DNA from: a virus
Virus record (IMG/VR): IMGVR_UViG_3300024052_000085
Span: 1 to 64,000 of that record
Direction: 5' to 3' (one strand)
DNA length: 64,000 bases
Shown here: positions 25,819-47,370 of the stretch, one piece after another
Position numbering within the stretch: position 1 is the first letter of the stretch
How the letters are laid out: every line of letters starts with the position of its first letter
The notes under the pieces: generated by a model
Seen by the model: only the letters and a program-made list of their open reading frames with translations
Database searches by the model: none
What the model was told of the DNA's origin: nothing
Translations under genes and position numbers: made by a program

Positions 25819-25848
25819 TTGAATGTTTAAAAGAAGCATCCCTATAAT
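25819..25848 (+). promoter_or_regulatory. sigma70-like promoter for the capsid operon
   Basis: TTGAAT-N18-TATAAT in the intergenic gap. Confidence 0.65.
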
Positions 25849-25896
25849 TAATTAAGGTGTTACACACTATTTACTTTTTTATGGAGGTAGTCAATC

Positions 25897-25986
25897 GTGG
25901 CTAAAGTTAAAGGATACTCTTACAAACGGAAGGGTAAAACCATCCGAGTAAAGGGTTACAGTCGCAAAAAGTCCAAGAAACGCTAG
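25897..25986 (+). CDS. 29-aa highly basic peptide (MAKVKGYSYKRKGKTIRVKGYSRKKSKKR), candidate DNA-condensing virion protein; not in the ORF track
   Basis: GTG start after GGAGGT; VKGYS occurs twice; first gene of the capsid operon. Confidence 0.75.
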   Translation: MAKVKGYSYKRKGKTIRVKGYSRKKSKKR

Positions 25987-26038
25987 TCTTGACTACTTTG
26001 GACATTAAAGTTAAAATATTGAAAGGAGGGAACACCTT

Positions 26039-26239
26039 ATGATTGAGTCAGTTATTAACGCTTTGGTTGCAGGTCTGATCGGCACGATTTCTTTTGTAGT
26101 TATCAAGAGTGTCGTTGCGGCTCAGAACACCACAGGTTGGTCTGCAGCTGAAATTGCCATCGTGACAATTATTCCTGTTGTTCTGGCGATCTTGGTCGTC
26201 GTCGGCATGTTTATGGGTCTCACGAAGCTTCGTTCCTAA
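26039..26239 (+). CDS. putative major capsid/coat protein 1 (66 aa, two hydrophobic helices, spindle-virus-like)
   Basis: Hydrophobic helix, QNTTGWS turn, hydrophobic helix with IP, basic tail; AAGGAGG RBS. Confidence 0.7.
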   Translation: MIESVINALVAGLIGTISFVVIKSVVAAQNTTGWSAAEIAIVTIIPVVLAILVVVGMFMGLTKLRS

Positions 26240-26287: not shown

Positions 26288-26488
26288 ATGATTGAGTCAG
26301 TTATTAATGCTCTAGTCGCAGGTTTGATTGGTACGATCTCCTTCGTTGTAATTAAGTCTGTTGTTGCAGCCCAGAACACTACAGGCTGGAGTGCAGCTGA
26401 GATTGCTATCGTAACTATTATCCCTGTTGTACTCGCGATTCTCGTAGTTGTGGGTATGTTTATGGGACTAACTAAGATGCGAGCTTAG
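26288..26488 (+). CDS. putative major capsid/coat protein 2 (64/66 aa identical to copy 1)
   Basis: Tandem paralog; AAGGAGGT RBS. Confidence 0.7.
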   Translation: MIESVINALVAGLIGTISFVVIKSVVAAQNTTGWSAAEIAIVTIIPVVLAILVVVGMFMGLTKMRA

Positions 26489-26563: not shown

Positions 26564-26580
26564 ATTCTAGGAGTTTCCAA

Positions 26581-29500
26581 ATGGGTCTTGATCATAGGTT
26601 TGGGGGAGATCATCCTCTTTCTTCTGGTCCTGCTAATGTACCAGAGCCTGAAGAATTACAACAAATTACAGAATCTGAACCTGAATCTGTAGATACTTAT
26701 GAACCGCCTGAAATGATCTCTTCAGGTATTCATGAAGTGTTTACTCAGGAAGATATTGATTCTGCAGCTGATGATTGGCAAGATATAATGGATGCTCAGG
26801 AGCCAGATCCAGAACCTGAGTATGAACCAGATCCTGAACCTGATCCTATACCTGAACCTGTTGAAACTTTTATAGAAGATGACATCTTTTTCGATCAAAC
26901 TGCTTCAGATGAAGAATATGAAGAGATAATAGATGCTGCTATTGAAGCAGCTATAGAAGAGCCTGTTGTAATAGTTCCTGCACCTGCTATAGGACCTCAG
27001 GAATCCGAACTTCCATTTATAGCTCCTCCTGACGAAATTATACTTCCTGATTCAGTTACATCTGAAAGTCAAGAAGAGACTGAAACTAACGTTGAACTAG
27101 CTACTATTGCATTACAGACTGAGAAAGATTTATTAATAGTAGAAACTCAAAATGATAACTTTGAAGAACTTGTTGAAAATATAGAAACAGTAACGGCTTC
27201 AGACGTGTTTAGGCAAGAAGCTGTAGGTAGTATTACTTCAGAACAAGCTGCTACTGTTTTAACTGAGATTAAAGGTAATCAAGAACAAGAACAACACGCT
27301 GCTCAGGTAGAGGCTTTAAGGCCTGCTACAGAGATTCAAGAAAGCTTAACAACCTTAATCGAAATGGAAGGTGAAGGTTCAAGTTTCTTCTCTACCGTAA
27401 ATAATCACTTTACAAGACATGTAGAATCTAGAACTGAAAGAGGTCTAGTTACTGATGAGGCTGAAGCAACTAGACTTTTTGAAACTATCCGAGATCAGTT
27501 AGCTCCTCAGTTAAAAGATCAGATAACCCACTTAGTATCTTCGGGAAACACTAGTATTATAAATGCTCTAGATCATGGTTTTACTGAGAGAGAACTTAGA
27601 GATTTTGGTTACACTACTGAACACTATCAAAATGCAGTAGAAACTAGAACTATTAGAGACGCTGTTATTATCAGCCATCAAGGAAATGTAATAGAGGCAC
27701 TTGTAAAGAGTGAAGATGTTACAGAAGATAATTTAATTAAATTATATTCTGAAGAGACTGTAGCTCAAATAGTTAACGTTTCTAACTTCGCAGACTCTGA
27801 AGGAATTGTAGATCCTTATGCTGCTATAGTTACAGATTCTGACAACATAGCAGAAGATCTTAAATTGTTCTTTAACGAAGATTTTATAGATACTCTAGGA
27901 GAAGTTAGTGAGTATATTGAAGTTGGAGAAGAGGGTGAAGAGTCTTTAGTAAATGCAGAAAGTTACGTTAGAGACAGCCTTGAAGATGGTGATCTAGAAG
28001 TAGTAGAAGAGAATCTAACTAAGTTAGGTTTCTCTAATGCTTCATCTTATATCGAAAGCGTACAGACAATTGTAAAGGCCGAAATTGCTACAGATGTAAT
28101 TGAAGAAGCTATAGGTATAGAAGATCTAAATAATTTCGAACCAGATAATAAAACTAGATCCAGTAAAATATTTACATTATATGCAAGAACAGAAAATTCT
28201 GATTCCCAAGTATTAGTAGACTACGGTTATCCTGAAGATATTTCTGAAGGTATAATAGTAGTTAAAGATTTTATTGATACTGAAGGTGTTTTAGATTCTT
28301 ATGGTGCTGCTCTAGGTGGTAAGACTAAAGAAGAACTAGAGGGTGCTGGTATTACAGAAGCTGATGCTAATTCAGCCACTCAATGGGGTCGAGTATCTAG
28401 AGCTATTTATGCAGATATTGGAGTACGTCCAGAAAATGTTACTCCTCTACAAGCAGCTAAATCTCAAGGTATTTATGGTACTTCAATACTATTTGGAGAT
28501 AACATTGCTTGGGCTGCAATGCATACTGTTCCACATCTTACTAAAGATGGTACCTTACTACCTCAAGTAGCTATGGCTAACGGTTTAAATAGTAATCATT
28601 TAATTACTTTGGGCGTTCCGGAAGAGAGAGTAAGGAATCTTCGAACTTTATCTACGTACTTTAATAAAGATAATAGAGAATACGATACCGCTTTAATGTG
28701 GTCAGATCCAGAAGCTCGAGAAGCAATCTTAAATCTAGCTCCTCAAGATACCGATAGTTTAGAATCAGCTTTTAAGTTCGGAGAAGCTAGAGAAACCTTT
28801 AGACTATCTTTTGGTATTGATTCGTATTCAGACGATCCAGGAATAGATGCTCCTACAGACCTCAGTACTGCTACTCCTATAGCTTTTATTCATCAAGGCG
28901 GTGATCCTCAAGTTCTTAAAGATATGACTGTCGATCCCGAAACTGTAGATGCGATAGTTACTTTAAATAACTTTGGAACGATATCTAGAGAAGGTAGTAT
29001 AGATATTAGAAGATCTATGGATCATAACGAAGCTGAACCTGATAAAGGAATTAAAGCTGCGTTAAGAACTTTAGAAGTGTCTTGGGAAGATATAAACAAA
29101 CAAGAGAAAAGAATAGAAGAAGCTCCTTTAGTAAGAGCTGCTCAATCTAGACTTGGATTAACTGATAGTAGTCTGCCTGATGAGATAACAGGAGATGTTA
29201 GTACTTTTAATCCTACTAAATACTATCTAGAAAACGGTCCTGAAGATTTTACAATTGCAAAGTTTAAACCTGAATACGTTGAAGCTTTAGAAACTTTATA
29301 TAACAACGATAGAATAGCTTCTGATGGCTCGCTGTTAATAGGTAATTTAATCACTCTTAAAGATGATTTTACTACTGAATGGGTTCCTGCTGCAATACCT
29401 TTAGAAAACGAAGAGTATCAAGCTTTAACTACTTTAGGAGTCGATGTAACTGAGATTCCAGAGTATGAAAGCTATATGCATTCTTTAGTAAAGACTGAAG

Positions 29501-32500
29501 GTGTTCCAGATGAGCTTAGTTTAATTACTGAATACGATTCTAATGGTGAGCTAGTAAGATCTTCTCAGGATATGGTCTTAGCTAGATTAAATATAATTAA
29601 CAATCCTGGAAGTAATAGAGAAACTCCAGATGAAGTAAGAGAAAGAGAATCTGGGAGAGGTTCTCTAGCTTCTATATCTAGAACATCTATTCCTGATATT
29701 GCTTCTATAGCTAATATTAAGGGCGTCGATAATATTATCAATTACTTTGATTGGAGTGGACCTCAGGAAGTAGTAGATTTAGGTAAAAGGTATTTTAATT
29801 ATCTACGTACTCAGAAAGAGAGAGATAAAGAACGAAGAGAGCAAATAGCTCTTCTAAAGGCAGAGGGTGAACTTGCTTTAGAAGACACTAGATTCATTTC
29901 TGCTTTATCTGGTGATCAAACGTTTACTCCTAACGTTGCAACTCTTTGGAAGTCCGTAACTTCGGATGATAAGTTTGACTATGAAGATTATTTACCAGGT
30001 ATGTTGCCTTTAGATTCTAGAACTCCTTTAGGTGTTAGGGATCAAGCAAGAATAGCTGCCTCAGGAGAAGGTATAGGTACTCAGGCAGCTCTTATGGCGG
30101 CTGGAGCCGTTATGGGTATGGTAGATCCTCTTCAGATAGGTTCAGATGTAAAAGAAGGTTGGGGTGCATGGGAGCAGGAACAAGAGCTTATCGATCAACG
30201 TAGAGCAGAAAGAATTGAAGCCTTAACTTCTACAGAATTAGCAGAAGAGGAACGAGTTAAAGAAGAGGGATTGTCTAGAACTGAAATGATGTTCTCGTCT
30301 GCAGCACTTTCAGGAATTGATTCAAAAGGGCCTTCAGCAGATGTAATAAGAATGATTCCTGGCCAAGAAGATTATGCTCCAGGTAGAATAGAATGGTTTA
30401 CTAAAATGATGGCTGTAGGTATGGTTCCTGGAGTAGGAACTGTTCAAGGTGTTACTGCAGCTATTAAAGCTCCAGAACATATTTCTAGAAGCATGGCTAT
30501 AGGTCAAGCTGTTGGCTCTACTATTATGGATCTAGCTTTCTTCCTTCCTTTGGCAAAAATTAGAATACGTCCTTCAACCATTAAAAATACTGGAGTGACA
30601 CATATTTCTAATAGAGCTGATGATGCTATAAGAGAGTTTTCTAAAGCTCGAGATGTTCTATTAAAACAAGGTAAAGATGCTCCTACACTAAAATTTGAAG
30701 AAGTCTCTAGTTATGACCATATACGAGAAGTTAATAGAGTTATAGATAATCTAGAAGACGTTGAGGGATTAAATATACTTCCAGACGAGTTAGTCGTTTC
30801 GAATAATTTAGATCCTATGCACGTATCAAATTCTATAAACGCTCGGAAGGGTATAATAGATCATCTAGATAGTAAGGTAACTGTTGAAAATCTTCTTGAT
30901 GATGTAAACTCTCCTAAAAATATTTCAGACAAAGTTAAATTAGAATTTGAAATCGATACTAACGTACCCGATCCTAGATTAAATTCTGAAGATCTTAATA
31001 CTGTTATTCAACTTCTTAAAGAAGACAAACCTGAAAGTGTACAGATTGAATATTGGGCAGTTAAGGAATCCAAAGATTCTGCTCCAGCAATAAAACCAGA
31101 AGGTACTATTAAATCTAAAAGTCCTGCTGCAGAGATTGCAGAACTTCGTAGATCTGCTAATTCTATTGAAGAACTTAATATCCCAAGCATGAAAGAGACA
31201 ATACGTGCTAATGAACAAAACCCTAGTGGAGGTATTGATAGAGCACAATTTTTAGACGAATCTTTAAATCGTTTAGAAGAACAAGTAGCGAGTAAGAGAA
31301 GTAGAGCGGATCTTCTTGAAAGAGGAGAGACACCAGAAGACTTTTCAACAATAATATCTGAAGGAGATTTACTATCTTCAATCAATAGAGTTACTCCTAC
31401 TGAACTTAAAGCTTATGTTGATGGTATTCGTGAAGCACTTGAAGAAGCAGATATAACTGTAGTTGTTAAAGTTAAAGAAGGAAAGGCAATAACTGCAGAT
31501 CAAGTATTGACTCCTGATGAAATAAAATTTATACCTGAACAATCTAAGTTCGACGCTGCTGCAGAAGGTTTTGGAACTCCTCCTAAAGATGAAGTTGTAA
31601 AGATGCCTTCTGAGGATGATTTTTTTACTCGTTTAGATGATCAATGGGAGCCAGAGGGTACATCAGATTTTAATATTCAAGATATTATAGGACCTGGACC
31701 TAGCGATGGCCCTACGGCATTTACAGGAACGTCTGCTGTTATGGAACGAGTAGGTGCGGAAGTACAGCCTCAAGTATCTTCTGCTCAACTACAACAAGCT
31801 ATGCAGCAAGCAGACAACCTAGGTATACAAATAAAAGGTACTGTAACAAGTCCTGAAGATTTAAATTACTATGTTCAATATACTACTGAAACGACAGCTA
31901 CACCTGTAACTCTTTCTTTCACTGACTTCTTTGGTCCCGCTTTAGGTACTTCTCTATCTTCGACTATGGAACAATATAGAGGTCTTGATTATGCTGAGTT
32001 ACCTAAATCTTTATCTGTTACAGGTTATACTCCTGTAATTGATTTGTCTGCCTATAACTTTAATACTTCAGGAGAAGCTTCAGCTGTTCCAACGTCTTAT
32101 ACCCCCTACTTTAGTAGCTATATTGGAGAAGACCAAGTAAGTCAGGGAATTAATCCTATTCTCTATAATAGAGGTTTAGAAGGTTTAGCTATAGCCCCTA
32201 ATATAGGTTCTAATAAATCTCCTCAAGGTCTATTAGGAGGAGTAGATACTATAGGTAAGTTTGATAAAACGATTCCTATGATGTTAACTGCACCTGATAA
32301 TCCAGTAAGATTTGAACCAGGTAAAGGTTGGGTTCAAGATACTGGAGAGTATACTTTTACTGATGCTACAGGCGGTCAAGAACAAAGAATAATATCTACA
32401 GGCACTGGAACAGAAGGAATGTCAGGTGTAACACCTTCTGAATTTACAAGTCCGGGCTCTAGACAATTTGTAGGTCCTGGATCTAAACAATTTGTAGCTC

Positions 32501-33192
32501 CTGGAGAGGGTATATCTAGTAGTCCTGTTTCAGGCACTAGGTCGAGTACTAGTTCTTCTACAAGCGCAGCTAGTAAGGCGGGAACTAAATCATCTACTAG
32601 TTCAGCAACTAAATCAGCAACTAGCTCTGGAACCAAGTCTGCTACAAGTGCTACTACAGCTTCAGCTCAATCAATTCAGTCAGCTATGTCCACAGGAACA
32701 GCTTCTGCAGTTAGTGTTTCGACTGGAGTTAGTGTAGATGTATCTCCTTTAATATCTCCGGCGATCAAACCTGTAGTTAAACCTAAACTTAAGGATAAGC
32801 TTAAGGAAGATACAAAAGTTAAGAGTCCAAAATTACCTAAGAGAAAACCTAAAGTTAGGGGAAAGGATAAGGATAAGAAAGTGGACGAGAAATATAAGGC
32901 AGCTAATATTAAAGGTGCAGTAGCTTGGAAGCAAGATGATGTTACTGGTGTTTATGTAATTTGGTATCCTCCGTATAATTTAGAGACTTTAGATTATGCT
33001 CTTCAAATTCCTGGGGGAGTTAAACGAGTAAAGACTATTCAAACTGCTTGGAGATGGATACATAATAGAGGAGGTGAGGTACCTGAAGATTCTTTAAGAG
33101 AAGTAGCTCTACTAGCTAAATCGTCTGCTCCTAGTCCTGCAAGTACTTTAGATGATATCTTGGGAGGAGAAGGAAAATTAATATTAAAGTAG
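26581..33192 (+). CDS. 2203-aa acidic virion-associated protein with degenerate helical repeats
   Basis: Directly after the capsid genes; acidic N-terminus, Ser/Thr-rich then Lys-rich C-terminus. Confidence 0.55.
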   Translation: MGLDHRFGGDHPLSSGPANVPEPEELQQITESEPESVDTYEPPEMISSGIHEVFTQEDIDSAADDWQDIMDAQEPDPEPEYEPDPEPDPIPEPVETFIEDDIFFDQTASDEEYEEIIDAAIEAAIEEPVVIVPAPAIGPQESELPFIAPPDEIILPDSVTSESQEETETNVELATIALQTEKDLLIVETQNDNFEELVENIETVTASDVFRQEAVGSITSEQAATVLTEIKGNQEQEQHAAQVEALRPATEIQESLTTLIEMEGEGSSFFSTVNNHFTRHVESRTERGLVTDEAEATRLFETIRDQLAPQLKDQITHLVSSGNTSIINALDHGFTERELRDFGYTTEHYQNAVETRTIRDAVIISHQGNVIEALVKSEDVTEDNLIKLYSEETVAQIVNVSNFADSEGIVDPYAAIVTDSDNIAEDLKLFFNEDFIDTLGEVSEYIEVGEEGEESLVNAESYVRDSLEDGDLEVVEENLTKLGFSNASSYIESVQTIVKAEIATDVIEEAIGIEDLNNFEPDNKTRSSKIFTLYARTENSDSQVLVDYGYPEDISEGIIVVKDFIDTEGVLDSYGAALGGKTKEELEGAGITEADANSATQWGRVSRAIYADIGVRPENVTPLQAAKSQGIYGTSILFGDNIAWAAMHTVPHLTKDGTLLPQVAMANGLNSNHLITLGVPEERVRNLRTLSTYFNKDNREYDTALMWSDPEAREAILNLAPQDTDSLESAFKFGEARETFRLSFGIDSYSDDPGIDAPTDLSTATPIAFIHQGGDPQVLKDMTVDPETVDAIVTLNNFGTISREGSIDIRRSMDHNEAEPDKGIKAALRTLEVSWEDINKQEKRIEEAPLVRAAQSRLGLTDSSLPDEITGDVSTFNPTKYYLENGPEDFTIAKFKPEYVEALETLYNNDRIASDGSLLIGNLITLKDDFTTEWVPAAIPLENEEYQALTTLGVDVTEIPEYESYMHSLVKTEGVPDELSLITEYDSNGELVRSSQDMVLARLNIINNPGSNRETPDEVRERESGRGSLASISRTSIPDIASIANIKGVDNIINYFDWSGPQEVVDLGKRYFNYLRTQKERDKERREQIALLKAEGELALEDTRFISALSGDQTFTPNVATLWKSVTSDDKFDYEDYLPGMLPLDSRTPLGVRDQARIAASGEGIGTQAALMAAGAVMGMVDPLQIGSDVKEGWGAWEQEQELIDQRRAERIEALTSTELAEEERVKEEGLSRTEMMFSSAALSGIDSKGPSADVIRMIPGQEDYAPGRIEWFTKMMAVGMVPGVGTVQGVTAAIKAPEHISRSMAIGQAVGSTIMDLAFFLPLAKIRIRPSTIKNTGVTHISNRADDAIREFSKARDVLLKQGKDAPTLKFEEVSSYDHIREVNRVIDNLEDVEGLNILPDELVVSNNLDPMHVSNSINARKGIIDHLDSKVTVENLLDDVNSPKNISDKVKLEFEIDTNVPDPRLNSEDLNTVIQLLKEDKPESVQIEYWAVKESKDSAPAIKPEGTIKSKSPAAEIAELRRSANSIEELNIPSMKETIRANEQNPSGGIDRAQFLDESLNRLEEQVASKRSRADLLERGETPEDFSTIISEGDLLSSINRVTPTELKAYVDGIREALEEADITVVVKVKEGKAITADQVLTPDEIKFIPEQSKFDAAAEGFGTPPKDEVVKMPSEDDFFTRLDDQWEPEGTSDFNIQDIIGPGPSDGPTAFTGTSAVMERVGAEVQPQVSSAQLQQAMQQADNLGIQIKGTVTSPEDLNYYVQYTTETTATPVTLSFTDFFGPALGTSLSSTMEQYRGLDYAELPKSLSVTGYTPVIDLSAYNFNTSGEASAVPTSYTPYFSSYIGEDQVSQGINPILYNRGLEGLAIAPNIGSNKSPQGLLGGVDTIGKFDKTIPMMLTAPDNPVRFEPGKGWVQDTGEYTFTDATGGQEQRIISTGTGTEGMSGVTPSEFTSPGSRQFVGPGSKQFVAPGEGISSSPVSGTRSSTSSSTSAASKAGTKSSTSSATKSATSSGTKSATSATTASAQSIQSAMSTGTASAVSVSTGVSVDVSPLISPAIKPVVKPKLKDKLKEDTKVKSPKLPKRKPKVRGKDKDKKVDEKYKAANIKGAVAWKQDDVTGVYVIWYPPYNLETLDYALQIPGGVKRVKTIQTAWRWIHNRGGEVPEDSLREVALLAKSSAPSPASTLDDILGGEGKLILK

Positions 33193-33199: not shown

Positions 33200-33517
33200 A
33201 TGAGAAATATTTTAAGAAGGCAGTTTCATTGGGTTTATGGTAAAACGGGTATGGGTAAACCTATAGTTATGGGTCCTTATAGTGAACATTTAAAAGCGAA
33301 TACAATTTCTGAGAAATTAGAAGATGGTAGAGTCTTCAGTCTCAATACTCGAAATATGCAGCAAGCTACAAGAACTATTAAAGCTCAACTCGTTCAATCA
33401 ACAGGTAAAATAGATGAACATATTCAAAGACATGGACACTCTGTAGAAGGTCAGAAGGTTTCTTTTGATAATCCTACTTCTAGTTTAGCTAACGAAATTA
33501 TGAGATCCTCAGATTAA
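33200..33517 (+). CDS. hypothetical protein (morphogenesis block)
   Basis: ORF track, context. Confidence 0.55.
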   Translation: MRNILRRQFHWVYGKTGMGKPIVMGPYSEHLKANTISEKLEDGRVFSLNTRNMQQATRTIKAQLVQSTGKIDEHIQRHGHSVEGQKVSFDNPTSSLANEIMRSSD

Positions 33518-35272: not shown

Positions 35273-35475
35273 TCTTGACTCTTACAACCTCAGGAAGAAG
35301 AAAAGCTAAGGACGTTATGGGTAAAGGGATAGAGCAATCTATCCTTTCTACCTTAGAAGAGAATGGTCCTGCTACTATCGAAGAACTAGCAAAAGATATT
35401 GCCATTGCAGAGTTTAAAGTTAAAGAAGCTGCTGCTAAGCTAGCTAACGGCAATTATCTTACGAGGGAAGACTAA
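35269..35475 (+). CDS. winged-helix DNA-binding protein
   Basis: IL..L...GPAT.EELA......V...L...NYL. Confidence 0.65.
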   Translation: MILTLTTSGRRKAKDVMGKGIEQSILSTLEENGPATIEELAKDIAIAEFKVKEAAAKLANGNYLTRED

Positions 35476-38287: not shown

Positions 38288-41200
38288 ACATGCAGACAAG
38301 TCCTGGATTTTAACCTGGACTTTAAGTCTTTTAACGATTTTAGGTTTTATAGGTTTACTAGTATATTCTAGTTTACCTACAACTGTACTTGCTAGTCATG
38401 ATCCTACAGCAGATCCCGATGACCCACATGCTGCCTTTAGAGTAGTTGATGTTAGGGAGGCTTACGGCAGGTTAGTACTTGAAGTTCAACACTTTAAGTC
38501 TAATGGAGACCATTGGTTCTATGAAGTTTATACTTGGGAAGGTACAGAAGAATTTAATAGACTTCCAGCTATTAATCCTCAGGGTCAATTATTATTAGAA
38601 GATAATAGTATTGCTCCTTATATTGCTAATCCTGAATATAATGAAGTAGGTATACTAAATCTAGACGAGTACAGAAAGGATGTTCCTCCAGAAGTACAGT
38701 ACATACCAATTAAGAAAGTAGAGTTTGAATTCCAAAAGGTAATAGAGGATGTAATTCCGTCAGATCCAGGAAAAGATACTTACTTTCAGTTTCTTGTAAC
38801 TTCAGGGGAAACTATAGGCTGGGAACAAGAGCAAGTTCTACAGAAACTAGGCCCACCCCTATCCAGTTCAAATAACGTAGTTGGAGATTTAGCCCCCGTA
38901 GTTGGGGATACATTAACTTATATTTACAGTGATGGTCCTGAACTACAATATTCTAATGAGACAGCCTTAAATAAAGAGGCTATTATTCAACAGGTAGCCT
39001 CTATTCATCAAGTACGCACAGAAAAGGGTTGGACAGGTAATAAGGGTAGAGTATTATCTCCTGAAGTTAAAAGCACTCCTAAATCAATAGAGGGAGCTAA
39101 ACTTCTAAGTATTAGATTTGCTCATCTACAGGGAACTACTTATTTTGAAGATGGAACTATATTTAATGGAGACACTGATCTCTTAGCAGGTATTGACGAT
39201 TATTTTGAGAGAGTTGATTTAAGGACTGATAGAAGTAAGACCTACAGTATTGGAGAAGATCTATATAGAACTGAACTGTATCAGACTGCTATTCATAGTG
39301 AAAATGAAAATGGAGAACTCTTAGATATATCCTATGACTTCATCAGAGTGCCAGATACCGATACCTGGGTAATGGGGACTCATCCAGATTATAAAGTTAT
39401 TGCTGATGAATCTACTCTAACTATAATAGATCCCACAGACACATATGGAGGTAGATGGTATACTCCTGCTCCTCTAACTTTTAAGGATAATACTGCTTAC
39501 TACTATGATGATGGATTAAAGTGGGTCTATTCTCTAACTCCTTCTGGAATAAAACTTGATGCTGAAGTTCATGAACCTAGGGGAGAAAGAGACTATGAAT
39601 TTACTTTCTTACCTTTGGGTGAAGGTATACAACCCTTTAGAATAGATAGTGATGGTAATGCAGTAACTGCTGATAGAGCTGTATCCACTACAGGTGGGGA
39701 AATTTACTTTGACTTTACTTTAAATGAGAATGATTATAGTATTGAACCTCAGTTAGTTGTTCCACGAGCTTTTGCTGAATTTGGAGAGGATATTAATAAA
39801 GTAAGGGTGAGTGCTTCTCCTTGGGAGATAGTAGACGACTATACGATTAAATTTACTTTTGATGATAAGGATATAACGAGTTATCCTTATGTACTTGATC
39901 CTACTACTACTATTTCACTAGTTGGAAATCCTCTACAAAATGGTATGATGTTCGGGACTATGTACTGTAATCCTATAACAGCTGGGTTTTACCCAAACTG
40001 GACTTGTGGTAGTGTTCATGGAACTGGACCAGAAGACTATTATATAGGTAAGTCTTCTGGTTCAGCTTATGAAGCAAAGAGGGGGATGATTAAGTTTGAC
40101 TTGAATAGTCTTCCTGCAGGTATTGTTATAACTAGAGCTTATATAGATATGTATAACTTTACTGGTGGAAGGAACTTTGATTCCACAGATTATGGGGATG
40201 ACCGTATTAATTTCCATAGACTTAGAAAAGAATGGGATATGAACGCAAACTGGACTAAAGCTACCAATAGTGTAAACTGGACAGGAGGTGGTGCTAGTCA
40301 AGACTGTTGGCATATAACTGCTAATAGCAATACTGGTTGTGATAGAGATACTGAAGTGTCTGCATCACTTGATGCTTATTCTGCTACCTCTCATCCTAAT
40401 GATAGCAATGCAGACTGTAACTGTTGGCATAGATGGGAAGGTGAAAAGTTATTAGTAGATGTTAGGCAGATGTATAGTGGTATGCGCCCTAACTATGGAT
40501 GGGTTATTGAACATCCTCAAGCTGAAAACTCTGCTAAACTGCAGGGTACCTGGGCCTACTGGTATTATGGCTATTATGGCTATAACCAAGTAGTAACACT
40601 TGGTCTTGCTACATATGCTCCACATATGACTGTGGAATATACTTTCCCTTCAATTGACAGTTGTGTTACTCAGACTAATTGGTATACAACAAATCAGGGT
40701 AGTTCCCCAGCTATGTGGGATGGTCAGATAGCTCACAACAATAACCACGTTGCTGCAACCTTCGTAACTAGAACTAGAGAACCTACAACATCTAATTCTG
40801 GGAACGCTAATTATGATACTGATATTACTGATACCCATATTAAAGTAGGTTGGTATGCAAAGCAAGGTATGACAAACGTTTTCTGGATACAACGAGGTGT
40901 TGTAATGTACGACACTTCAAATCTTCCAGATGATGCTATAGTAGTAGATGCAAAGTGGCACTTCACAATTAGTGCTAAAGCCAACCAAAATACTTCTGTT
41001 ACAGCTGAATATGCCTATGATGGGTCTGTTGGTAGTTTCAACTCCTTAGCTAGTCAATCTATAAATTTAGTTGGACTGAATTATACAGACCCTGATGGAC
41101 TGAATCCTAATAGTGGTTTAGCTGGAGCTAATAGACATGACTTAACTAGTATGACCACTTGGAATACTAATGACTATGGCGTCCTAAAACGTTCTGTAGA

Positions 41201-44200
41201 ACCAATGACAGTAGATATGTATATCTACGATGCAAAACAGAATTCTCAAGGTAATATTAACAATGCAGGAGGAGGCCTTTACGGTCAAACACATTATGTA
41301 GATAGTCCCTATCATCATAGAGACCTTACAGACTTTGGTATGGCCTACATAAATAAAACTGGTATTACTAAGTTTGCAATTCTACATAGTGATGATAGAC
41401 AAGGTGACCCTCCTATTTGGTATAATGACTTGTGGTCTTACCTCAATATAGCCTCTTCTGAGGCAGGTTCTCAGTATGAACATAAGTTAGAAGTTACTTA
41501 TAGAGTACCTTGTGCTGAAGTGGGTACTGAAGCTACAGATACAGTTACTAATACCGCAGTTAGTACATACTATGGTACAGATGCTAATGACGATTGGAGT
41601 TATCAAATAGGTAACTATCCTGCTCAGGGAGCTACTAGAAAATGGCATGGTATGTGGGCTGATTCAGCTCATGCTATGCAGAACGCTTCCATTCTGTATT
41701 TGAGTTTTGGTCAACATAGTTCAGGGCAAACTAACTGGTCAACCCTTGCTGGGGATGAATACTACTTTGCTTTTAGATCTGTAGTTAACTTCGATACTAG
41801 TAACCTCCCAGATTATACTCAATGTACGTCTGCTACTCATACTTCTTATCCAGCTGTAGATGGAGAGTATCAGACATACAACTCAGCTGGTTATGAATGG
41901 TATAACATGACCAATGAGAACAGAACTACTGGCTCCAATACTCAAACAACTGATTCTACATCTACTACTATGAGAGTAGGGTTCCAGATGCATTCTACTC
42001 AAAGGAAGTATACTCATCAGTGGCGATCTGAATTACAGTTTGATACTTCAGGTATTCCAGCTAATGCTGTAATTACTGATGCTACCTTAAGGTTGAAGAA
42101 AGCTAACTCACCTGGTGTTTATAGTGCTAATTCTGTTGTAGGTATGGAGAGATCTAATACTTGGGGTGCTGGACCTAATGGTACTAGCCTACAAGAGGAT
42201 GACTATGATAATATGGACTTTAGAGCCATAGCTTTTGGTCAACCAAATGATACTGCTCCAGGTATTAAGTATTTCCAGATTAATAGCCTGGGTCTTGAGA
42301 ACTCAATAAAGAAAGGTGTTGGGGCTATTACTCAGTTAGGCCTTATGGATTCAAGGATATTAAATAATAAAGAGATTTGGAACGGCAGCAACAGTACTGC
42401 TACCTCATGGTATACAGTAGAGAATGGTAACGCTACCACTAAACCTCAATTATCTGTAAACTACTATGTACCTTGTGACAATGGTATTATAGATGCATGG
42501 TTAGACCTTGGAATCTCTGGAGCTAGACTATGGTCTAAAAATAGTCCACTAGGAGCCCATAACTGGTTTGGCTCAGGAAATGCATACACACTTAACTCCT
42601 TAAAACCTCATCCAGAAAGTGACCTAACAGTTGTGGGAGTAAAGGTAGAAGCTGGGCATGCGGATAACTATGGTTCTGCTGTAGCTAGTGATTTCCATAA
42701 ACATACTAAAGGCCAGATTACAGAAGAAATACCTGCTGTTAGGATGAACTGGGACGATTATACTAGATTCCAGTTTACTGATGAAGGTCTATATTCTGTA
42801 AATACAACTGGACATACTCAAATAGGTTTGCAGTTAGGTAATGACTACTGGGATTATGAACCAGTACATAATGGAGGAGGGTGGTCCTACGAAATTGTTC
42901 TCCATTCCTATACTGATGCTACTTCCAGGCCTAAGTTAACTGTTGTTCATGGTTATCAGAATCAAGCAGCTTTCTATTCTAATGCTATACATAATAAAGT
43001 ATTAACTATCAATACTAGTGGTACTACTTGGGTAAACCCTCTGACTAATACCATGAAACAGGATATAATAAATGGTATAACAGGTCACTTATCTGAAAGT
43101 ACTTCTTGGAATACTGCTGTTAAAGCCAATATGTCAGTTGGAGAAGTAATAAGGACTGACGATGATACAGTTACTATAACTTTCGGGAATCATAGTACTT
43201 ATGCTCCTAGTGTAGCTGAAACTATGACCATACTTATACCTGCTAGTGCTACTAACGATGCTCTTGCTAGTCTACCATCTCGTAGTACTTTTCAGGTAGA
43301 TCCTGTTCCATTTTCTTTTACAGCAGCAACTCCTACAATGGCTACTAATACAGGTCCTTTGACTTTAACCTTAACAGGTGCAGGTCTTCCCCCAGGAGGT
43401 AGCTTACCTTTCCAAGGATCAGAAGATGTAAGGATGCAGAAATCTGGTGAACCTGATATTGTATGTTCAGGAGTTTCTGGAGGAGGTAGCTCGTCTGTTG
43501 TTAGTTGCCCTACAACTGGAGCACCTGTAGGAGCTTGGGATATTAAAGTTATAAACGGTGCAGGACTAACTGGTACACTTTCTGCTAATACTACTTTATA
43601 TTCTCCTTGGTCTAGTACAGTAAATGGAGGAGACTTTAGTCCTGGAGGATCAGACTATGGTGTATTTGCTCATGATGCAGTTCCCTACTTCACAGTTCAA
43701 GCTTTTGATGAAGTAGAAAAAGAATGGGGTGTCGCTTCTAGTCCTCCTACTTCATTACCTACTACTGCTGGTATGGATGCTGAATTTAATTTAACAAAGA
43801 CTAGAATAGTAGTTGCTACTTCTACAACTATAACCCCTTTATATGCTTATGAGTTTTCACCTCTAACAGGAGTTATTGGAGGAACATCTTCACCTGCTTC
43901 ACCAACTCTTATGGGAACTACCTCTTTAGACTTTGGATATGCCGATAATGTTATCGGAACAACAACTACTGGTGGTGACTATTTCTACATAAATGATGTT
44001 GACACATCAGCTGCTATAGCTAGCTTCTGGACTAGTACATTAGCTAATACTTCTACTAAACCTACAGCTACTTGTAACGATATTGATGTTACGGTAAGTT
44101 ATATAGCTGTAGGATGTGATTCTGCTCCCTACTTATTTGTATACAACTTCGATAACGCTACTCCTGCTATAGGTACTAAACTTAGTGATCCTGCTAATCC

Positions 44201-45968
44201 TCCTACAGCTTCTGTAACTGGAGTCGAGTTTAGTCCAGACATGAATAAGATAGCTATAACTTGGGATACTTACCTATCGGTATACGAGTTTGATGATGCT
44301 ACAGGAACAATAGGTACTTTAGAAAGTGTTAGCTTAGCTAGTACTGCTACGGGATTAGACTGGCAAAATGAGAATACTACAGGTGTTACATCAATTGCTG
44401 CAAGTTCAACCTTAACACCTTTCATACATGCTTGGCCTTACAATACAAGTTTGAGTACCGGAGCTTTTGGGTCTAAATTAACAGACCCAAGTCCTTTACC
44501 TTCTGGAGCTGGTACTTTTGTAGGTATACATATAAATGATGATGTAGTAGTATTGGGTCAGAGTGTATCTCCTTACATAACTACCTATGAATATACGGGT
44601 ACTAGCGATGACGACTTTGCAATCAATAGATTGGTATTAAATTTCGATACTTCATACCTACCTGATGATGCTGTAATTACAGATGTTAAGCTTAACATAC
44701 CCCATGTTGCCTTAACCGCAGCTAATACATTACCCGGAACTACTCATTGGGACTTATATGTTCAAGAAGGATCTATTGCTGCTGAACCTATATCAGTTAC
44801 AGACTTTGACTTTAATAAATACGATCTACCAACATATCCAGTTATAGGATCTAAAAATAGTGCCGCAATGACAGGTTCTTCTTTTAGTATTAACTTAAGT
44901 GCATCTACTTTCATTAATAGTACTGGAATCTCTCAGTTAATATTAAGACATGAACATGAAGTGAGTTCGACTTCAACTCCTGCTGCACAGACAGATCAGT
45001 TTATAGAAATTAATTACGGAGGTCAGGAAGTAGGTAACGAATTCCCTACAGCTTGTACTTCAGATAGTACTTGGGGTACTATACAATCAGATAGTGCATA
45101 CAATATGTGTAATGCTACTAATGTACCTAAATTATTAATTACTTACACTTCTGTAAGTTCAGGTACTCCTGCAGACCTTGTAACTAATATAACGAGTATT
45201 GCTAACATACCAAAATCTGATGGAACTTATACTGTAGGAATACTTGCTAAAGGACCTGTAATAGTTTCTAAGGTTGAAGGTAATAGTACAAATACTACGG
45301 ATTACGGTTTCAATAGAGTTCAAGTAGATAATCTAAATAGTTGGAGTTTCCATACTTCAAGCGATCCTCAGAAACCTACCTCATTTGTTAACTACACTAG
45401 GATATATAGAAATCCTACAACCTATAATGCTATAAATCCCATTGTCGACTGGACTCTGACTGGTATACATAGCTTCCCCGAAAATTGGTTTTACGATTTA
45501 GGTACTGATGCTAATATCGATAACGCAGTTTATGAAATTGCAATTCCTTCAAGTTCAGTCTCACCAACGTTATCCAATAACGTAGGTATTGCAAGTGTAG
45601 CACCATTAAATGCTGCTTTACCTTCATATTCTCAGTTAGTAGGTATTTCAGATAATACTCCCGATCTTACTACCAGTTCATCTTCGGGAGTTGCAGGACT
45701 ACCTCTAGAACCCTTCTGGTTATATATAGAGTCTCAAACTGGAATGCCCGCAAAAGTAATGGTTTTGATGTTTGCATTATCATTCGTGATATTTGCAGGT
45801 GTTCTAGCCTTTAGATCATTCCAATCTGTAGCAGCATCTTTCATAGTAATGATTATAATGATAGCAGTATTTGCACTATCATTCGGAGGAGTATTCCCAT
45901 GGTGGATGCTAATAACATTTGCAATGACAGGTGGTATCTTCGTATTCGCTAGGAGAGCATACGTATAA
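38274..45968 (+). CDS. 2564-aa membrane-anchored adhesin/spike with DNRLRE-like repeats, an IPT-like domain and a beta-propeller
   Basis: Five R...FD(T/L)..(L/I)P motifs; TP...G..TLTLTG...C.T..A..G.WD..V.N; C-terminal TM bundle. Confidence 0.75.
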   Translation: MTLVKHADKSWILTWTLSLLTILGFIGLLVYSSLPTTVLASHDPTADPDDPHAAFRVVDVREAYGRLVLEVQHFKSNGDHWFYEVYTWEGTEEFNRLPAINPQGQLLLEDNSIAPYIANPEYNEVGILNLDEYRKDVPPEVQYIPIKKVEFEFQKVIEDVIPSDPGKDTYFQFLVTSGETIGWEQEQVLQKLGPPLSSSNNVVGDLAPVVGDTLTYIYSDGPELQYSNETALNKEAIIQQVASIHQVRTEKGWTGNKGRVLSPEVKSTPKSIEGAKLLSIRFAHLQGTTYFEDGTIFNGDTDLLAGIDDYFERVDLRTDRSKTYSIGEDLYRTELYQTAIHSENENGELLDISYDFIRVPDTDTWVMGTHPDYKVIADESTLTIIDPTDTYGGRWYTPAPLTFKDNTAYYYDDGLKWVYSLTPSGIKLDAEVHEPRGERDYEFTFLPLGEGIQPFRIDSDGNAVTADRAVSTTGGEIYFDFTLNENDYSIEPQLVVPRAFAEFGEDINKVRVSASPWEIVDDYTIKFTFDDKDITSYPYVLDPTTTISLVGNPLQNGMMFGTMYCNPITAGFYPNWTCGSVHGTGPEDYYIGKSSGSAYEAKRGMIKFDLNSLPAGIVITRAYIDMYNFTGGRNFDSTDYGDDRINFHRLRKEWDMNANWTKATNSVNWTGGGASQDCWHITANSNTGCDRDTEVSASLDAYSATSHPNDSNADCNCWHRWEGEKLLVDVRQMYSGMRPNYGWVIEHPQAENSAKLQGTWAYWYYGYYGYNQVVTLGLATYAPHMTVEYTFPSIDSCVTQTNWYTTNQGSSPAMWDGQIAHNNNHVAATFVTRTREPTTSNSGNANYDTDITDTHIKVGWYAKQGMTNVFWIQRGVVMYDTSNLPDDAIVVDAKWHFTISAKANQNTSVTAEYAYDGSVGSFNSLASQSINLVGLNYTDPDGLNPNSGLAGANRHDLTSMTTWNTNDYGVLKRSVEPMTVDMYIYDAKQNSQGNINNAGGGLYGQTHYVDSPYHHRDLTDFGMAYINKTGITKFAILHSDDRQGDPPIWYNDLWSYLNIASSEAGSQYEHKLEVTYRVPCAEVGTEATDTVTNTAVSTYYGTDANDDWSYQIGNYPAQGATRKWHGMWADSAHAMQNASILYLSFGQHSSGQTNWSTLAGDEYYFAFRSVVNFDTSNLPDYTQCTSATHTSYPAVDGEYQTYNSAGYEWYNMTNENRTTGSNTQTTDSTSTTMRVGFQMHSTQRKYTHQWRSELQFDTSGIPANAVITDATLRLKKANSPGVYSANSVVGMERSNTWGAGPNGTSLQEDDYDNMDFRAIAFGQPNDTAPGIKYFQINSLGLENSIKKGVGAITQLGLMDSRILNNKEIWNGSNSTATSWYTVENGNATTKPQLSVNYYVPCDNGIIDAWLDLGISGARLWSKNSPLGAHNWFGSGNAYTLNSLKPHPESDLTVVGVKVEAGHADNYGSAVASDFHKHTKGQITEEIPAVRMNWDDYTRFQFTDEGLYSVNTTGHTQIGLQLGNDYWDYEPVHNGGGWSYEIVLHSYTDATSRPKLTVVHGYQNQAAFYSNAIHNKVLTINTSGTTWVNPLTNTMKQDIINGITGHLSESTSWNTAVKANMSVGEVIRTDDDTVTITFGNHSTYAPSVAETMTILIPASATNDALASLPSRSTFQVDPVPFSFTAATPTMATNTGPLTLTLTGAGLPPGGSLPFQGSEDVRMQKSGEPDIVCSGVSGGGSSSVVSCPTTGAPVGAWDIKVINGAGLTGTLSANTTLYSPWSSTVNGGDFSPGGSDYGVFAHDAVPYFTVQAFDEVEKEWGVASSPPTSLPTTAGMDAEFNLTKTRIVVATSTTITPLYAYEFSPLTGVIGGTSSPASPTLMGTTSLDFGYADNVIGTTTTGGDYFYINDVDTSAAIASFWTSTLANTSTKPTATCNDIDVTVSYIAVGCDSAPYLFVYNFDNATPAIGTKLSDPANPPTASVTGVEFSPDMNKIAITWDTYLSVYEFDDATGTIGTLESVSLASTATGLDWQNENTTGVTSIAASSTLTPFIHAWPYNTSLSTGAFGSKLTDPSPLPSGAGTFVGIHINDDVVVLGQSVSPYITTYEYTGTSDDDFAINRLVLNFDTSYLPDDAVITDVKLNIPHVALTAANTLPGTTHWDLYVQEGSIAAEPISVTDFDFNKYDLPTYPVIGSKNSAAMTGSSFSINLSASTFINSTGISQLILRHEHEVSSTSTPAAQTDQFIEINYGGQEVGNEFPTACTSDSTWGTIQSDSAYNMCNATNVPKLLITYTSVSSGTPADLVTNITSIANIPKSDGTYTVGILAKGPVIVSKVEGNSTNTTDYGFNRVQVDNLNSWSFHTSSDPQKPTSFVNYTRIYRNPTTYNAINPIVDWTLTGIHSFPENWFYDLGTDANIDNAVYEIAIPSSSVSPTLSNNVGIASVAPLNAALPSYSQLVGISDNTPDLTTSSSSGVAGLPLEPFWLYIESQTGMPAKVMVLMFALSFVIFAGVLAFRSFQSVAASFIVMIIMIAVFALSFGGVFPWWMLITFAMTGGIFVFARRAYV

Positions 45969-46052
45969 TGGCAGAGTGGAATAGAGAATATTTTGATGGG
46001 AGAGCATACGTATAATGGCAGATAGAGAATGTTTTGATTGGAATAGAGAATA
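45952..46052 (+). repeat. mosaic tandem duplication (24-bp GGAGAGCATACGTATAATGGCAGA at 45952 and 45999)
   Basis: Exact copies, plus repeated TGGAATAGAGAATA and ATAGAGAATRTTTTGAT. Confidence 0.85.
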
Positions 46053-46563
46053 CTATGGTAAAACCCATCCACATAAAAAGTTCTATAACATTCCAGATGT
46101 AGAAGGAACTAAACATTTAGATATAGGGTGGAGCGAAGGAGATTTCCCAATAATTGGAGCTACTCTGGGAGTAGATCCTGGTAGTAATCGAAAATTTTGG
46201 AACTTTGAACACTCTCCAGAAGAGGATAAAGAAGTAACAGACTTTTATAGAAGTATAAACTTCGAAGAAATAGCTGCTAGTGGGACACATCTACCTTTTG
46301 CAAATGGAACTATAGACTCTGTATCATCTCAGCATTCAATGGGAATGGAATTCGATTTAGAAGAGGGATTAGCAGAAGCTATCAGAGTACTTAGGAGCGG
46401 AGGTAAGTTAGCAGTTTTAACATGGGTTACTACTGAAGAAATTGAAGAGTTAAGAAGATGGTTGAGAAGTCAACCTGTACAAAATGTTAGAATAAGAAAA
46501 AGAGATAAAGATGAAGACACTGATAATTTATTTCTTTACGGAATAGAGTTCACTAAGGTATAA
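46015..46563 (+). CDS. class I SAM-dependent methyltransferase-like, paralog 2
   Basis: LDIG, ASGTHLPF..GTIDSV, EAIRVLRSGG. Confidence 0.75.
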   Translation: MADRECFDWNREYYGKTHPHKKFYNIPDVEGTKHLDIGWSEGDFPIIGATLGVDPGSNRKFWNFEHSPEEDKEVTDFYRSINFEEIAASGTHLPFANGTIDSVSSQHSMGMEFDLEEGLAEAIRVLRSGGKLAVLTWVTTEEIEELRRWLRSQPVQNVRIRKRDKDEDTDNLFLYGIEFTKV

Positions 46564-46566
46564 TAA

Positions 46567-47370
46567 ATGAATAAATTAATGGCATTCTTCGTATTCACAT
46601 TCATATGTGGGTCAATGATCAGTTTTACAATGGAAGGGGGTTCTGGTATAGTAACAACTCATCTAAAAGACACTATTACCGCTTCACAGAATGTTATACC
46701 TGTAAATAGTATTGTAGGCTTTTTAACTGGAGGTGATAGGATAACAATCGAAGATGAAGATATTAGATATAATAGCGTACAAGCTGCAGGAATAATAACT
46801 TCTGTAGATCCGGGAGCTGATGGATTATACGACTCTAGCACCTTGGGTGCTGCTATAAATAATGATAACGTTTGTGAAGATGGATCTATATGGTTAGCCA
46901 GTAGAACCTTAATAACTAATGCATGCGTAGGAGCTGTAACAGGAGAGATAGCTTATACATGCCCTTGTATGGTCCTAACAAATAGTAATACGGTTCCAAT
47001 AATGAGAGGAGCTGATTCTTATGATAGTGAAGAGACTGAAGCTAAACCTCATGCAGGGCCAGATAACTCAAAAGTACCCCCAAGAAGAGGTACTAAAGTC
47101 TTTAACAGAGGGTCTTCATTAGTAAATCAGGCTTTAGGAATGAACATAGCTCAAAGTGCGACAACAGCAGGTGTTGCCAAAACATTTGTTCTATTGCCTA
47201 TAGCATTGAGTAAGACAGCAATAAAACTAGTAGCTTGGGACTTCGCATATCTAGAAGGAAACTTTTCATACTTTAAGTATATGATCTTGTATCCTATATC
47301 TGCAGGATTCATGTATACCATACTAATAACCGGTGCAAGTCTATTCCAGGGAGTCTTTAGAAGAGGATAA
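46567..47370 (+). CDS. membrane-anchored structural protein
   Basis: N-terminal and C-terminal TM; T.L...I......IPV.S..GF....I.IE.E.I.Y pattern typical of virion beta domains. Confidence 0.6.
   Translation: MNKLMAFFVFTFICGSMISFTMEGGSGIVTTHLKDTITASQNVIPVNSIVGFLTGGDRITIEDEDIRYNSVQAAGIITSVDPGADGLYDSSTLGAAINNDNVCEDGSIWLASRTLITNACVGAVTGEIAYTCPCMVLTNSNTVPIMRGADSYDSEETEAKPHAGPDNSKVPPRRGTKVFNRGSSLVNQALGMNIAQSATTAGVAKTFVLLPIALSKTAIKLVAWDFAYLEGNFSYFKYMILYPISAGFMYTILITGASLFQGVFRRG

Follow-up and report, generated by a model that had tools for sequence, protein, structure and literature searches.

The stretch of DNA analysed here, which we call the window, comprises bases 1-64000 of the 78,758-bp IMG/VR record IMGVR_UViG_3300024052_000085 (G000). 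Our subject is a one-strand (plus) block of genes at 25819-47370, built around a duplicated gene for a 66-aa two-helix hydrophobic protein and a gene for a Zot/pI-family ATPase. A first-pass annotation of the window had described this block as a morphogenesis module and had read it as that of a spindle-shaped or filamentous, membrane-extruded virus of bacteria. The block is real, in that all of the elements named are present at the coordinates given below and their order is conserved in relatives; the observation is thus confirmed, and the interpretation is partly supported. We place somewhat better than even confidence in a reading, predicted from genes alone, in which the genome is that of a bacterial virus that has no tail, is assembled at the membrane and is coated with a hairpin protein. 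Most likely, this virus has neither an HK97-type head nor a tail, and the genes at 25.8-47.4 kb form a virion module around the 66-aa hairpin.

The module opens with a 226-bp leader that carries, at 25819-26017 on the plus strand, two sigma70-like hexamer pairs with 10 of 12 matches each (TTGAAT-18-TATAAT at 25819-25848 and TTGACT-17-TAAAAT at 25989-26017), which rank second and third in 15 kb. The block had been credited with its own promoter; the two hexamer pairs agree with this, but promoter-like sites as a class are not enriched over shuffled sequence (50 versus 45.9), so a promoter function for the leader is at most presumptive. A 29-aa very basic peptide with 14 Lys or Arg residues (25898-25987), a candidate DNA-condensing protein, is followed by the two copies of the 66-aa protein (26039-26239 and 26288-26488), the candidate major virion protein. 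Both copies are preceded by AGGAGG, the second by AGGAGGT 8 nt before its ATG, and the Shine-Dalgarno sequence of the hairpin gene is perfect in all relatives.

Downstream lie genes for an acidic 2203-aa protein without an assigned function (26581-33192), a 105-aa conserved core protein (33200-33517), a 196-aa conserved core protein with a transmembrane (TM) helix at its N- and C-terminus (33550-34140), and a 107-aa conserved core protein (34140-34463). The soluble 265-aa P-loop ATPase of the Zot/pI family (34475-35272) is followed by a 68-aa winged-helix protein (35269-35475) with weak matches to HTH_24, MarR and TrmB (3e-3 to 3e-2), and by a basic-tailed 101-aa protein with two TM segments and a 30-aa single-TM peptide (together 35475-35872). 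A 368-aa conserved core protein with a signal or anchor segment and two C-terminal TM helices (35859-36965), a secreted or anchored Ser/Thr-rich protein of 441 aa (36962-38287) and a 2564-aa surface protein, the candidate spike or adhesin (38274-45968), come next, and the module closes with a 182-aa class I methyltransferase (46015-46563; Methyltransf_11, 3e-7) and a 267-aa conserved core protein with an N-terminal anchor and a hydrophobic C-terminus (46567-47370). TM protein genes start at 33550, 35475, 35780 and 35859.

The two giant proteins differ in what can be said of them. The 2203-aa protein contains helical repeats and, at its centre, a hydrophobic stretch rich in Gly and Ala, together with a Ser/Thr-rich linker and a C-terminal part rich in Lys; it has no match in Pfam, PHROG or NCBIfam. 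Its residues 200-920 and 2080-2176 are conserved in three relatives (L009, L012 and L013), and the large protein at this position ranges from 911 aa (in L027) to 2203 aa across relatives. The 2564-aa protein has an N-terminal anchor, DNRLRE domains (NF033679, 1.1e-10) and two C-terminal TM helices, with the C-terminal anchor conserved in L038. Adjoining the module, at 48908-57653, is a glycosylation set made up of a fusion of a family 2 glycosyltransferase (GT2) with GtrA, a 470-aa multi-TM protein without a family match, and a cupin of the phosphomannose isomerase (PMI) type; this set may modify the Ser/Thr-rich surface proteins.

The relatives, designated by L and G numbers, are metagenome contigs from IMG/VR, JGI and GenBank, derived from marine water and sediment. 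The order they share runs from PolA through a basic open reading frame (ORF), one or more hairpin genes, the large protein, the 105-, 196- and 107-aa proteins, the ATPase, the winged-helix protein and the 368-aa protein to the 267-aa protein. It recurs in L003, L004, L009, L013, L014, L027 and L037 (which is G002) and is rearranged in L038, and the synteny extends down to 43-51% ATPase identity over about ten marine and sediment relatives. Because the same gene order recurs in this way, the module cannot be a product of chance. A short basic ORF also ends directly 5' of the hairpin gene in L005, L007, L014 and L015, and homologues of individual core proteins are widely kept: the 105-aa protein in L003, L004, L009, L013, L027, L037 and L038, the 107-aa protein at 57-92% identity, the 368-aa protein at 22-37% identity in L003, L004, L013, L027, L037 and L038, the 267-aa protein in L004, L014, L037 and L038, and the 441-aa protein in L003. 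G002 (IMGVR_UViG_3300005253_003504, 35.9 kb) is colinear with G000 from a PolB-like gene upstream of the module through the GT2 gene. IMG/VR labels G002 a provirus, a label that we reject, as the contig is colinear with G000 throughout and shows neither a host-like flank nor a shift in GC content.

The genome is a near-complete linear double-stranded DNA (dsDNA) of 78.8 kb, or 80.4 kb if a 1.74-kb terminal piece is repeated whole, and the earlier statement that it exceeds 64 kb thus holds. Genes lie on the plus strand up to 74.7 kb and on the minus strand from there to the end of the record; coding density is ~97%, and no tRNA genes were found in the genome. The record ends on the right with 116 bp (78643-78758) that repeat 1623-1738 exactly in inverted orientation, and the repeated segment may be the inner edge of a terminal inverted repeat. 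Run X1, the probable source, covers the virus at ~50x, and its Logan contigs contain it as two records only, one spanning 15-1738 and the other a unique piece of 76,964 bp with the same 30-mer at both ends in opposite orientation. The junction between 1738 and the reverse complement of 78642 is seen again in three further runs (X2-X4), and in none of the four does the assembly continue past the outer end. In the graphs of these four runs both ends of the unique ~77 kb join the same end of the 1.7-kb piece, from which we conclude that the replicon is linear and that all of its unique sequence is in hand. The CheckV completeness estimate of 55% is therefore too low. The ends may take the form of a full inverted terminal repeat or of a 116-bp inverted repeat at the right end, possibly with inversion isomers.

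The AlphaFold model of the 66-aa protein (pLDDT 86) is a hairpin with helices at residues 2-27 and 36-65. Its two copies differ in 38 of 66 codons but in only 2 residues (97% amino acid and 78% nucleotide identity), and the tandem pair is kept in nearly all relatives. Paired copies, in the window as in L005, L008, L010-L016 and L027, share turn residues that are specific to their lineage and so evolve in concert at the protein level; since they do so while synonymous sites are saturated (pS 0.70), ordinary gene conversion does not explain them. The family has 42 close members, and among 1.84 billion proteins it forms 45 clusters at 50% identity, with lengths of 59-73 aa barring a few tandem fusions, and has a conserved turn, Q-[DN]-T-[ST]-x-W-[ST], with a Pro 12 residues past the Trp. 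The NTT N-glycosylation sequon within this turn is not conserved across the family, so that a parallel with the glycosylated turn of spindle-virus coat proteins is not supported.

Better evidence than that of the fold comes from profile comparison with VP21, the coat protein of the spindle-shaped virus His1. When the wide profile of the hairpin family was aligned by hhalign with a 22-sequence VP21 family, all of whose members belong to PF25665 (His1_capsid), the probability was 83.7% (P 8e-6, score 31.0, 36 columns); against VP21 alone it was 71.6%. Column shuffles within segments gave a mean score of 13.2 (sd 3.5, maximum 25.6), with none of 150 reaching 31 (z ~5), while reversed profiles scored 19.6-22.6 and a set of twelve genuine small TM proteins from His1 and SSV1 gave 6-18. 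The near and far halves of the family profile, taken separately, scored 28.1 and 30.1 against the His1 capsid family. VP21 was not detected with the window protein alone or with a narrow profile. The suggestion of a spindle-coat-like protein therefore survives in part: the His1 signal (84%, 0/150 shuffles) speaks for it, but there is no match to Pfam His1_capsid, the fold is generic and SSV1 gives no signal. To us these profile alignments are suggestive of distant homology to the His1 coat rather than of membership in that family, and a remote kinship of the 66-aa protein with spindle-virus coats of the His1 type is probable.

Other searches contribute less. The top Foldseek match of the hairpin model in PDB is 7xdi_A, a 69-residue chain of an SSV19 tail entry (E 0.4, probability 0.92); this likeness to SSV19 is not specific, and fold searches are uninformative here because the hairpin fold is generic. 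A sequence search of PDB with the family profile returned nothing meaningful, the 66-aa protein had no tblastn match in 50,697 phage records, and a scan of genome contigs with the family profile found nothing. The protein matches no inovirus coat family in Pfam or PHROG and has no cleavable leader, and two family members gave only non-significant matches to holin families (E 0.07-5); no significant match thus links it to a holin family, an outcome that had been named as one way in which the first reading could fail. Its position first in the module, the perfect Shine-Dalgarno sequence, the kept tandem pair, the adjacent basic ORF and the lack of a lysin support an abundant structural role, and we infer from this setting that it is a major, very abundant virion protein.

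The ATPase is a member of the Zot family, in the neighbourhood of FtsK-, HerA- and RecA-like translocases, a placement based on sequence, Foldseek and VIA-align matches. Its match to Pfam Zot (1.4e-8) scores 34.9 bits, over the cut-off of 20.3; further matches are to phrog_197 ('Zot-like', 2.5e-8) and to M13 protein I (4e-4), and through its P-loop only it also matches a terminase family, phrog_2666, at 6e-4. PF05707 is present in 73 of 73 homologues, and the best PDB sequence match of the family profile is the N-domain of Neisseria Zot. The AlphaFold model (pLDDT 79) likewise has the Zot N-domain (2r2a, 1.4e-9) as its first Foldseek match, followed at ~1e-6 by RadA, KaiC and the STIV/STIV2 B204 packaging ATPase, and in VIA-align Zot (Z 13.4), STIV2 B204 (13.1) and HerA (13.0) are tied. 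The Zot/pI-like assignment made at the outset is thus secure. The protein has no TM segment and no C-terminal or periplasmic domain. Inoviruses are not the only carriers of this family, as records of Bacillota, Hofneiviricota and Uroviricota are among its Atlas neighbours. The pairing of a Zot ATPase with a spindle-type module, as first proposed, finds no counterpart in the known spindle viruses, which use a DnaA-like AAA+ protein instead.

The tie among Zot, B204 and HerA bears on an alternative in which the virus is icosahedral with an internal membrane (PRD1/STIV-like, Varidnaviria-type), the ATPase packages linear DNA into a capsid formed beforehand, and the hairpin and TM proteins reside in the internal membrane. 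The occurrence of Pox_A32 in one ATPase homologue fits such a virus, as do the linear genome, the inverted terminal sequence and a gene resembling protein-primed family B polymerases (pPolB), which together make up the tectivirus pattern. However, there was no candidate for a jelly-roll capsid protein (the beta-rich proteins of 441 and 368 aa bear signal or TM segments), and the ATPase is nearest to Zot by about three orders of magnitude in sequence and Foldseek comparisons. In addition, 80 kb far exceeds the genomes of known bacterial double jelly-roll viruses. We consider this alternative improbable.

Pfam and PHROG scans of all ORFs of at least 50 aa in the whole 78.8-kb record (~118 ORFs, E<=1e-3) detected no head, packaging, tail (tube, sheath or baseplate), holin or lysin family, the sole terminase-family exception being the P-loop match of the ATPase. 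Six-frame searches of G000, G002 and G003 with Terminase_6N, Phage_portal and Phage_capsid were also negative, with positive controls detected. The reported absence of HK97 capsid, portal, terminase, tail and lysin genes is thus borne out for the entire record at the level of hidden Markov models (HMMs). The families that were found belong to replication, recombination, nucleotide metabolism and glycosylation only; they include PolA with a uracil-DNA glycosylase (UDG) and an exonuclease, SNF2, Sak4, a DUF669 single-stranded DNA-binding protein (SSB), a Cas4-like exonuclease and dUTPase, as well as FolE, QueC, QueD and QueE, GT2 with GtrA, a PMI cupin, FkbM and other methyltransferases, HNH and DSPc. 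A Walker-A motif scan picked out three proteins only, namely Sak4, SNF2 and the Zot-like ATPase.

We considered how far the same content might fit a tailed phage (Caudoviricetes) with head, tail and terminase proteins too divergent for HMMs, in which the block would hold a tape-measure-like giant, fibres or adhesins, a holin pair and an accessory ATPase. Tailed phages typically have replication and nucleotide modules like those found here (phrog_17 at 2.5e-102, phrog_62 at 6.5e-96, Sak4 and the 7-deazaguanine genes). The 2203-aa protein recalls tape-measure proteins in its helical repeats and in hydrophobic stretches rich in Gly and Ala, Uroviricota records occur in Zot-like clusters, and many ORFs are unannotated. 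Yet the genome is complete and still yields no family of TerL, portal, HK97, tube, sheath, baseplate or lysin at E<=1e-3, there is no further canonical Walker-A protein to serve as TerL and no endolysin to accompany a holin, and the 66-aa family leans to the His1 capsid family, not to holins. The large unannotated ORFs, moreover, are charged and of low complexity by sequence, with a disordered look, or else carry an HExxH motif (one) or a lipobox with Pro/Thr linkers (one). A tailed phage is accordingly an unlikely identity for this genome.

A still more distant alternative is that the record is no virus at all but a linear plasmid or other mobile element, with the block encoding a surface adhesin and its secretion or anchoring apparatus. 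The giant adhesin-like DNRLRE protein, the glycosylation genes and the lack of a recognised capsid would suit such an element. No ATPases of the VirB4, TraG or type II secretion kind used in conjugation or secretion are present, however, and at the head of the module stand a basic peptide and a hairpin protein that is encoded twice and shows a capsid-family signal; the 7-deazaguanine, dUTPase and sigma region 4 genes are virus-like, and IMG/VR files the record as viral. We regard a non-viral element as very improbable.

We turn to the host, which is likely to be a bacterium. A stand-alone 95-aa protein at 2794-3081 (plus strand) corresponds to region 4 of RpoD/SigA (Sigma70_r4, 58 bits); by phmmer against PDB it aligns with SigA residues 301-362 of 371 at E 1.6e-18, and the best 60 of its 67 matches are all bacterial RpoD, SigA, HrdB or RpoS chains. 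This protein argues for a bacterial host because archaeal transcription has no partner for region 4. It is also a candidate decoy or appropriator of host RNA polymerase, and a second, weaker Sigma70_r4 helix-turn-helix lies on the minus strand at record positions 74741-75202. The nearest relatives of the UDG-PolA fusion are in tailed phages of bacteria (25-28% identity); the reported PolA and RpoD region 4 genes are thus both confirmed. Further signs are the Sak4/SSB/Cas4-exonuclease module, the LAAC lipobox of a 653-aa protein and strong use of GGAGGT Shine-Dalgarno sequences. The sole relative found in an ATPase-family scan of 185,579 species genomes lies in a 2.4-Mb metagenome-assembled genome (MAG) with 8 sigma70 genes and no TBP. 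With a GC content of 44%, against 50-59% in two further contigs of this MAG, the relative's contig is viral sequence that was binned with the MAG rather than a provirus; the Atlas neighbours of the MAG's RpoB are Bacteroidota or Planctomycetota. A bacterial host, as first proposed, is hence favoured, at the level of the domain only, by region 4, UDG-PolA, the phage modules, the lipobox and the MAG relative.

A second polymerase gene complicates this picture. The 574-aa product of 12666-14390 (plus strand) is a divergent homologue of protein-primed-type PolB, with a BLASTP match to His1 PolB at 5e-5 in which DITSAFPS (motif A) aligns with DINSAYPA and YNPIFASHVTG..R with FNPFLASYITG..R. The ORF has 35% identity over 544 aa in G002, and this conservation indicates that it is under selection. 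Its sequence thus suggests a divergent His1-like protein-primed PolB, a putative polymerase that coexists with the complete UDG-PolA fusion. The genome yielded no identified terminal protein for this gene; an adjoining, conserved and unannotated 229-aa ORF (14390-15079) could be one.

These features raise an alternative that overlaps our preferred reading in virion type and departs from it in host, namely a giant relative of the halspi-, thaspi- or fuselloviruses that infects archaea and has acquired phage-like replication genes. The His1-like coat signal, the His1-like pPolB and the linear genome with inverted ends speak for it, as do winged-helix matches in MarR, TrmB and HVO_A0114, habitats (deep sea, sediment, vent and seep) that are rich in archaea, and the existence of large predicted spindle viruses of ANME-1. 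On the other side, archaeal transcription offers nothing on which a stand-alone primary-sigma region 4 (E 1.6e-18) could act. The Sak4 module and the family A polymerase with UDG are characteristic of bacteriophages, and the genome has a lipobox protein and its only genome-binned relative in a bacterial MAG. We judge an archaeal host rather unlikely.

Comparison with known systems helps to place the preferred reading, a hairpin-coated, membrane-assembled virus of bacteria. His1 (Halspiviridae) shares with it a ~70-aa two-helix hydrophobic protein, the coat in His1 and the candidate coat here, with a Ser/Thr-rich turn, a Trp and a Pro 12 residues on. Behind the gene for this protein come, in both, proteins that have TM segments at the two termini and then proteins with a signal and a C-terminal anchor. 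Both genomes are linear dsDNA with a sequence inverted at the ends (here at least the 116-bp copy), and both encode a pPolB homologue and glycosyltransferases. In contrast, His1 is 14.5 kb against ~79 kb here, its ATPase is DnaA-like AAA+ and not Zot-type, and the window virus, in which Pfam His1_capsid has no match, possesses PolA, a recombination module, 7-deazaguanine genes and a bacterial sigma region 4. The window module, known here from its genes alone, follows the logic of the structural modules of His1, the Nitrosopumilus spindle-shaped viruses (NSV) and SSV but with an inovirus-type ATPase; the NSV (Thaspiviridae) are likened to it only by extension from His1. In the Fuselloviridae, SSV1 has tandem hairpin coat paralogues, VP1 and VP3, beside the small basic DNA-binding protein VP2, whereas there is no profile signal and SSV genomes are circular, of 15 kb and integrase-encoding.

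The Inoviridae (Tubulavirales) provide the other half of the comparison, with a Zot-family ATPase beside several short hydrophobic proteins and no lysin. They differ in having 5-15 kb circular single-stranded DNA and a rolling-circle Rep, no family of which was found in our record, as opposed to ~80 kb of linear dsDNA with polymerases; pI has TM and periplasmic domains, of which the window ATPase has neither, and the pVIII-type coat is a single helix with a signal peptide rather than a hairpin. Pleolipoviridae (HRPV-1) and Plasmaviridae resemble the module in that genes for a P-loop ATPase, a spike with a TM anchor and a small membrane protein form a conserved cluster, and a Walker-B motif, 'DE....FDART.S', is common to HRPV-1 VP8 and the window ATPase; as an ATPase relative, however, VP8 was rejected, for the hhalign comparison aligned only 22 columns around Walker B at a probability of 9%. 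Their genomes are of 7-16 kb, and a vesicle-type virion finds no support here.

Two recently described groups are compared by description only. According to a 2026 preprint (bioRxiv 10.64898/2026.09.15.751708), the IME1s of Dehalococcoides are small integrative elements in which a pI-like ATPase occurs together with small TM proteins that structurally match SSV1 VP1 best, and they have been proposed to represent a budding or filamentous virus. They share with the window lineage a probable bacterial setting and the combination of pI-like ATPase and small TM proteins, and lack its ~80-kb linear genome, marine distribution and full replication arm. The predicted spindle viruses of ANME-1 (Itzamnaviridae and tepeuvirus PBV144) reach 72.6 kb, are divided into a structural and an enzymatic arm, and have two major capsid protein (MCP) genes in Itzamnaviridae and one in the tepeuvirus; their morphology is predicted from the MCP only, and archaeal hosts were assigned via CRISPR, according to the portions of PMC9894754 on which we draw. 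Large size, the two arms and, for Itzamnaviridae, the two coat genes recall the window virus, but the hosts are archaeal, and those portions of PMC9894754 do not report a Zot ATPase or PolA. Given IME1 and the ANME-1 viruses, neither a Zot ATPase with a hairpin coat in a bacterium nor a large predicted spindle virus is wholly unprecedented. In the literature searched we found no precedent for a complete 80-kb linear genome that combines such a module with bacterial signals.

We suggest how the products of the module could act together in the membrane-assembled virus that we favour. The hairpin protein and the TM-anchored proteins of 196, 101, 368, 267 and 2564 aa would insert into the cytoplasmic membrane of the host, and the 29-aa basic peptide would condense the genome, perhaps assisted by the 2203-aa protein. 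Docking to the small membrane proteins would place the soluble Zot/FtsK-HerA-like ATPase at the membrane, where it would drive DNA translocation or coat assembly, and particles would leave by budding or extrusion without an endolysin. The giant DNRLRE protein would be carried as a receptor-binding spike, possibly glycosylated by the GT2/GtrA, GT-C and PMI proteins of the virus. That the particle is spindle-shaped, pleomorphic or filamentous, and that it is extruded through the membrane, we can only infer.

Several observations weigh against this reading. With regard to the coat, the His1 alignment spans only the turn and helix 2 and its signal is moderate; the Pfam His1_capsid HMM has no match at E<=10 for four family members; the hhalign comparison with SSV1 VP1 and VP3 gives no signal (probability ~2%); the VIA-align Z of 6.6 for the SSV19 chain is tied with PsbZ (6.8) and below a designed TM hairpin (8.2); and a Foldseek search of BFVD with the hairpin model found nothing below E 1.3. 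The ATPase by itself does not imply extrusion, because Zot-like ATPases occur in Uroviricota-labelled records. A very divergent capsid or terminase protein could yet lie among the unannotated proteins of 677, 496, 378, 318, 330, 299 and 287 aa. The His1-like MCP and pPolB are features otherwise archaeal, and the evidence for a bacterial host is indirect. Finally, relative to the unique piece the 1.7-kb terminal piece has a k-mer depth of about 1.1x (range ~1.0-1.4x) and not 2x, which does not fit a full two-copy inverted terminal repeat of 1.74 kb.

Elsewhere in the genome, a 378-aa unannotated protein (58710-59846) has an HExxH motif (LAHEISHKALGH) and is a possible metalloprotease. The 653-aa lipobox protein, at record positions 72758-74719 (L002:10758-12719), has a bacterial-type lipoprotein signal (…LIFALAAC), long Pro/Thr linkers and no family match. 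The genes at 18339-20823, with QueD elsewhere in the record, make up a complete preQ0 pathway (FolE, QueD, QueE and QueC), which implies 7-deazaguanine modification of DNA; a DpdA transglycosylase was not identified in the record, and a 330-aa ORF at 6668-7660 matches phrog_5931 (2.7e-53, function unknown). An intergenic repeat, GCATCAGAT(T/C)AA followed after 6-9 nt by TA(A/T)AAT, stands at the starts of gene groups (9749-9775, 15085-15110, ~55185-55215 and record ~66465-66495). Its spacing is too short for a standard sigma70 -35/-10 arrangement, and it may therefore be a virus-specific promoter. A GC-rich intergenic island at 20837-20955 contains GGATCACCTCC, which equals the 3' end of 16S rRNA, flanked by a long inverted repeat.

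Only tentatively do we propose that this genome represents a new lineage of ~80-kb linear dsDNA viruses of marine bacteria, with a His1-related hairpin coat and Zot-type membrane assembly or extrusion. To our knowledge, the large-genome dsDNA viruses of bacteria are all tailed, with HK97-fold heads, and spindle-shaped or pleomorphic virions with hairpin coats are regarded as archaeal specialities. If the proposal is true, this would be the first large-genome virus of bacteria that is neither tailed nor based on a jelly-roll capsid, and it would broaden the virion architectures known for bacterial viruses. It would also flag a marine group that is misjudged by marker-based tools such as CheckV (55%). 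The lineage, so far uncultured, is widespread in deep water, marine sediments, vents and seeps, and the family can for this reason be targeted for enrichment. The hairpin-coat architecture, so far established only for archaeal viruses, would be common to viruses of bacteria and archaea, and this would bear on whether hairpin-coat viruses predate the split between the two domains or have moved between them.

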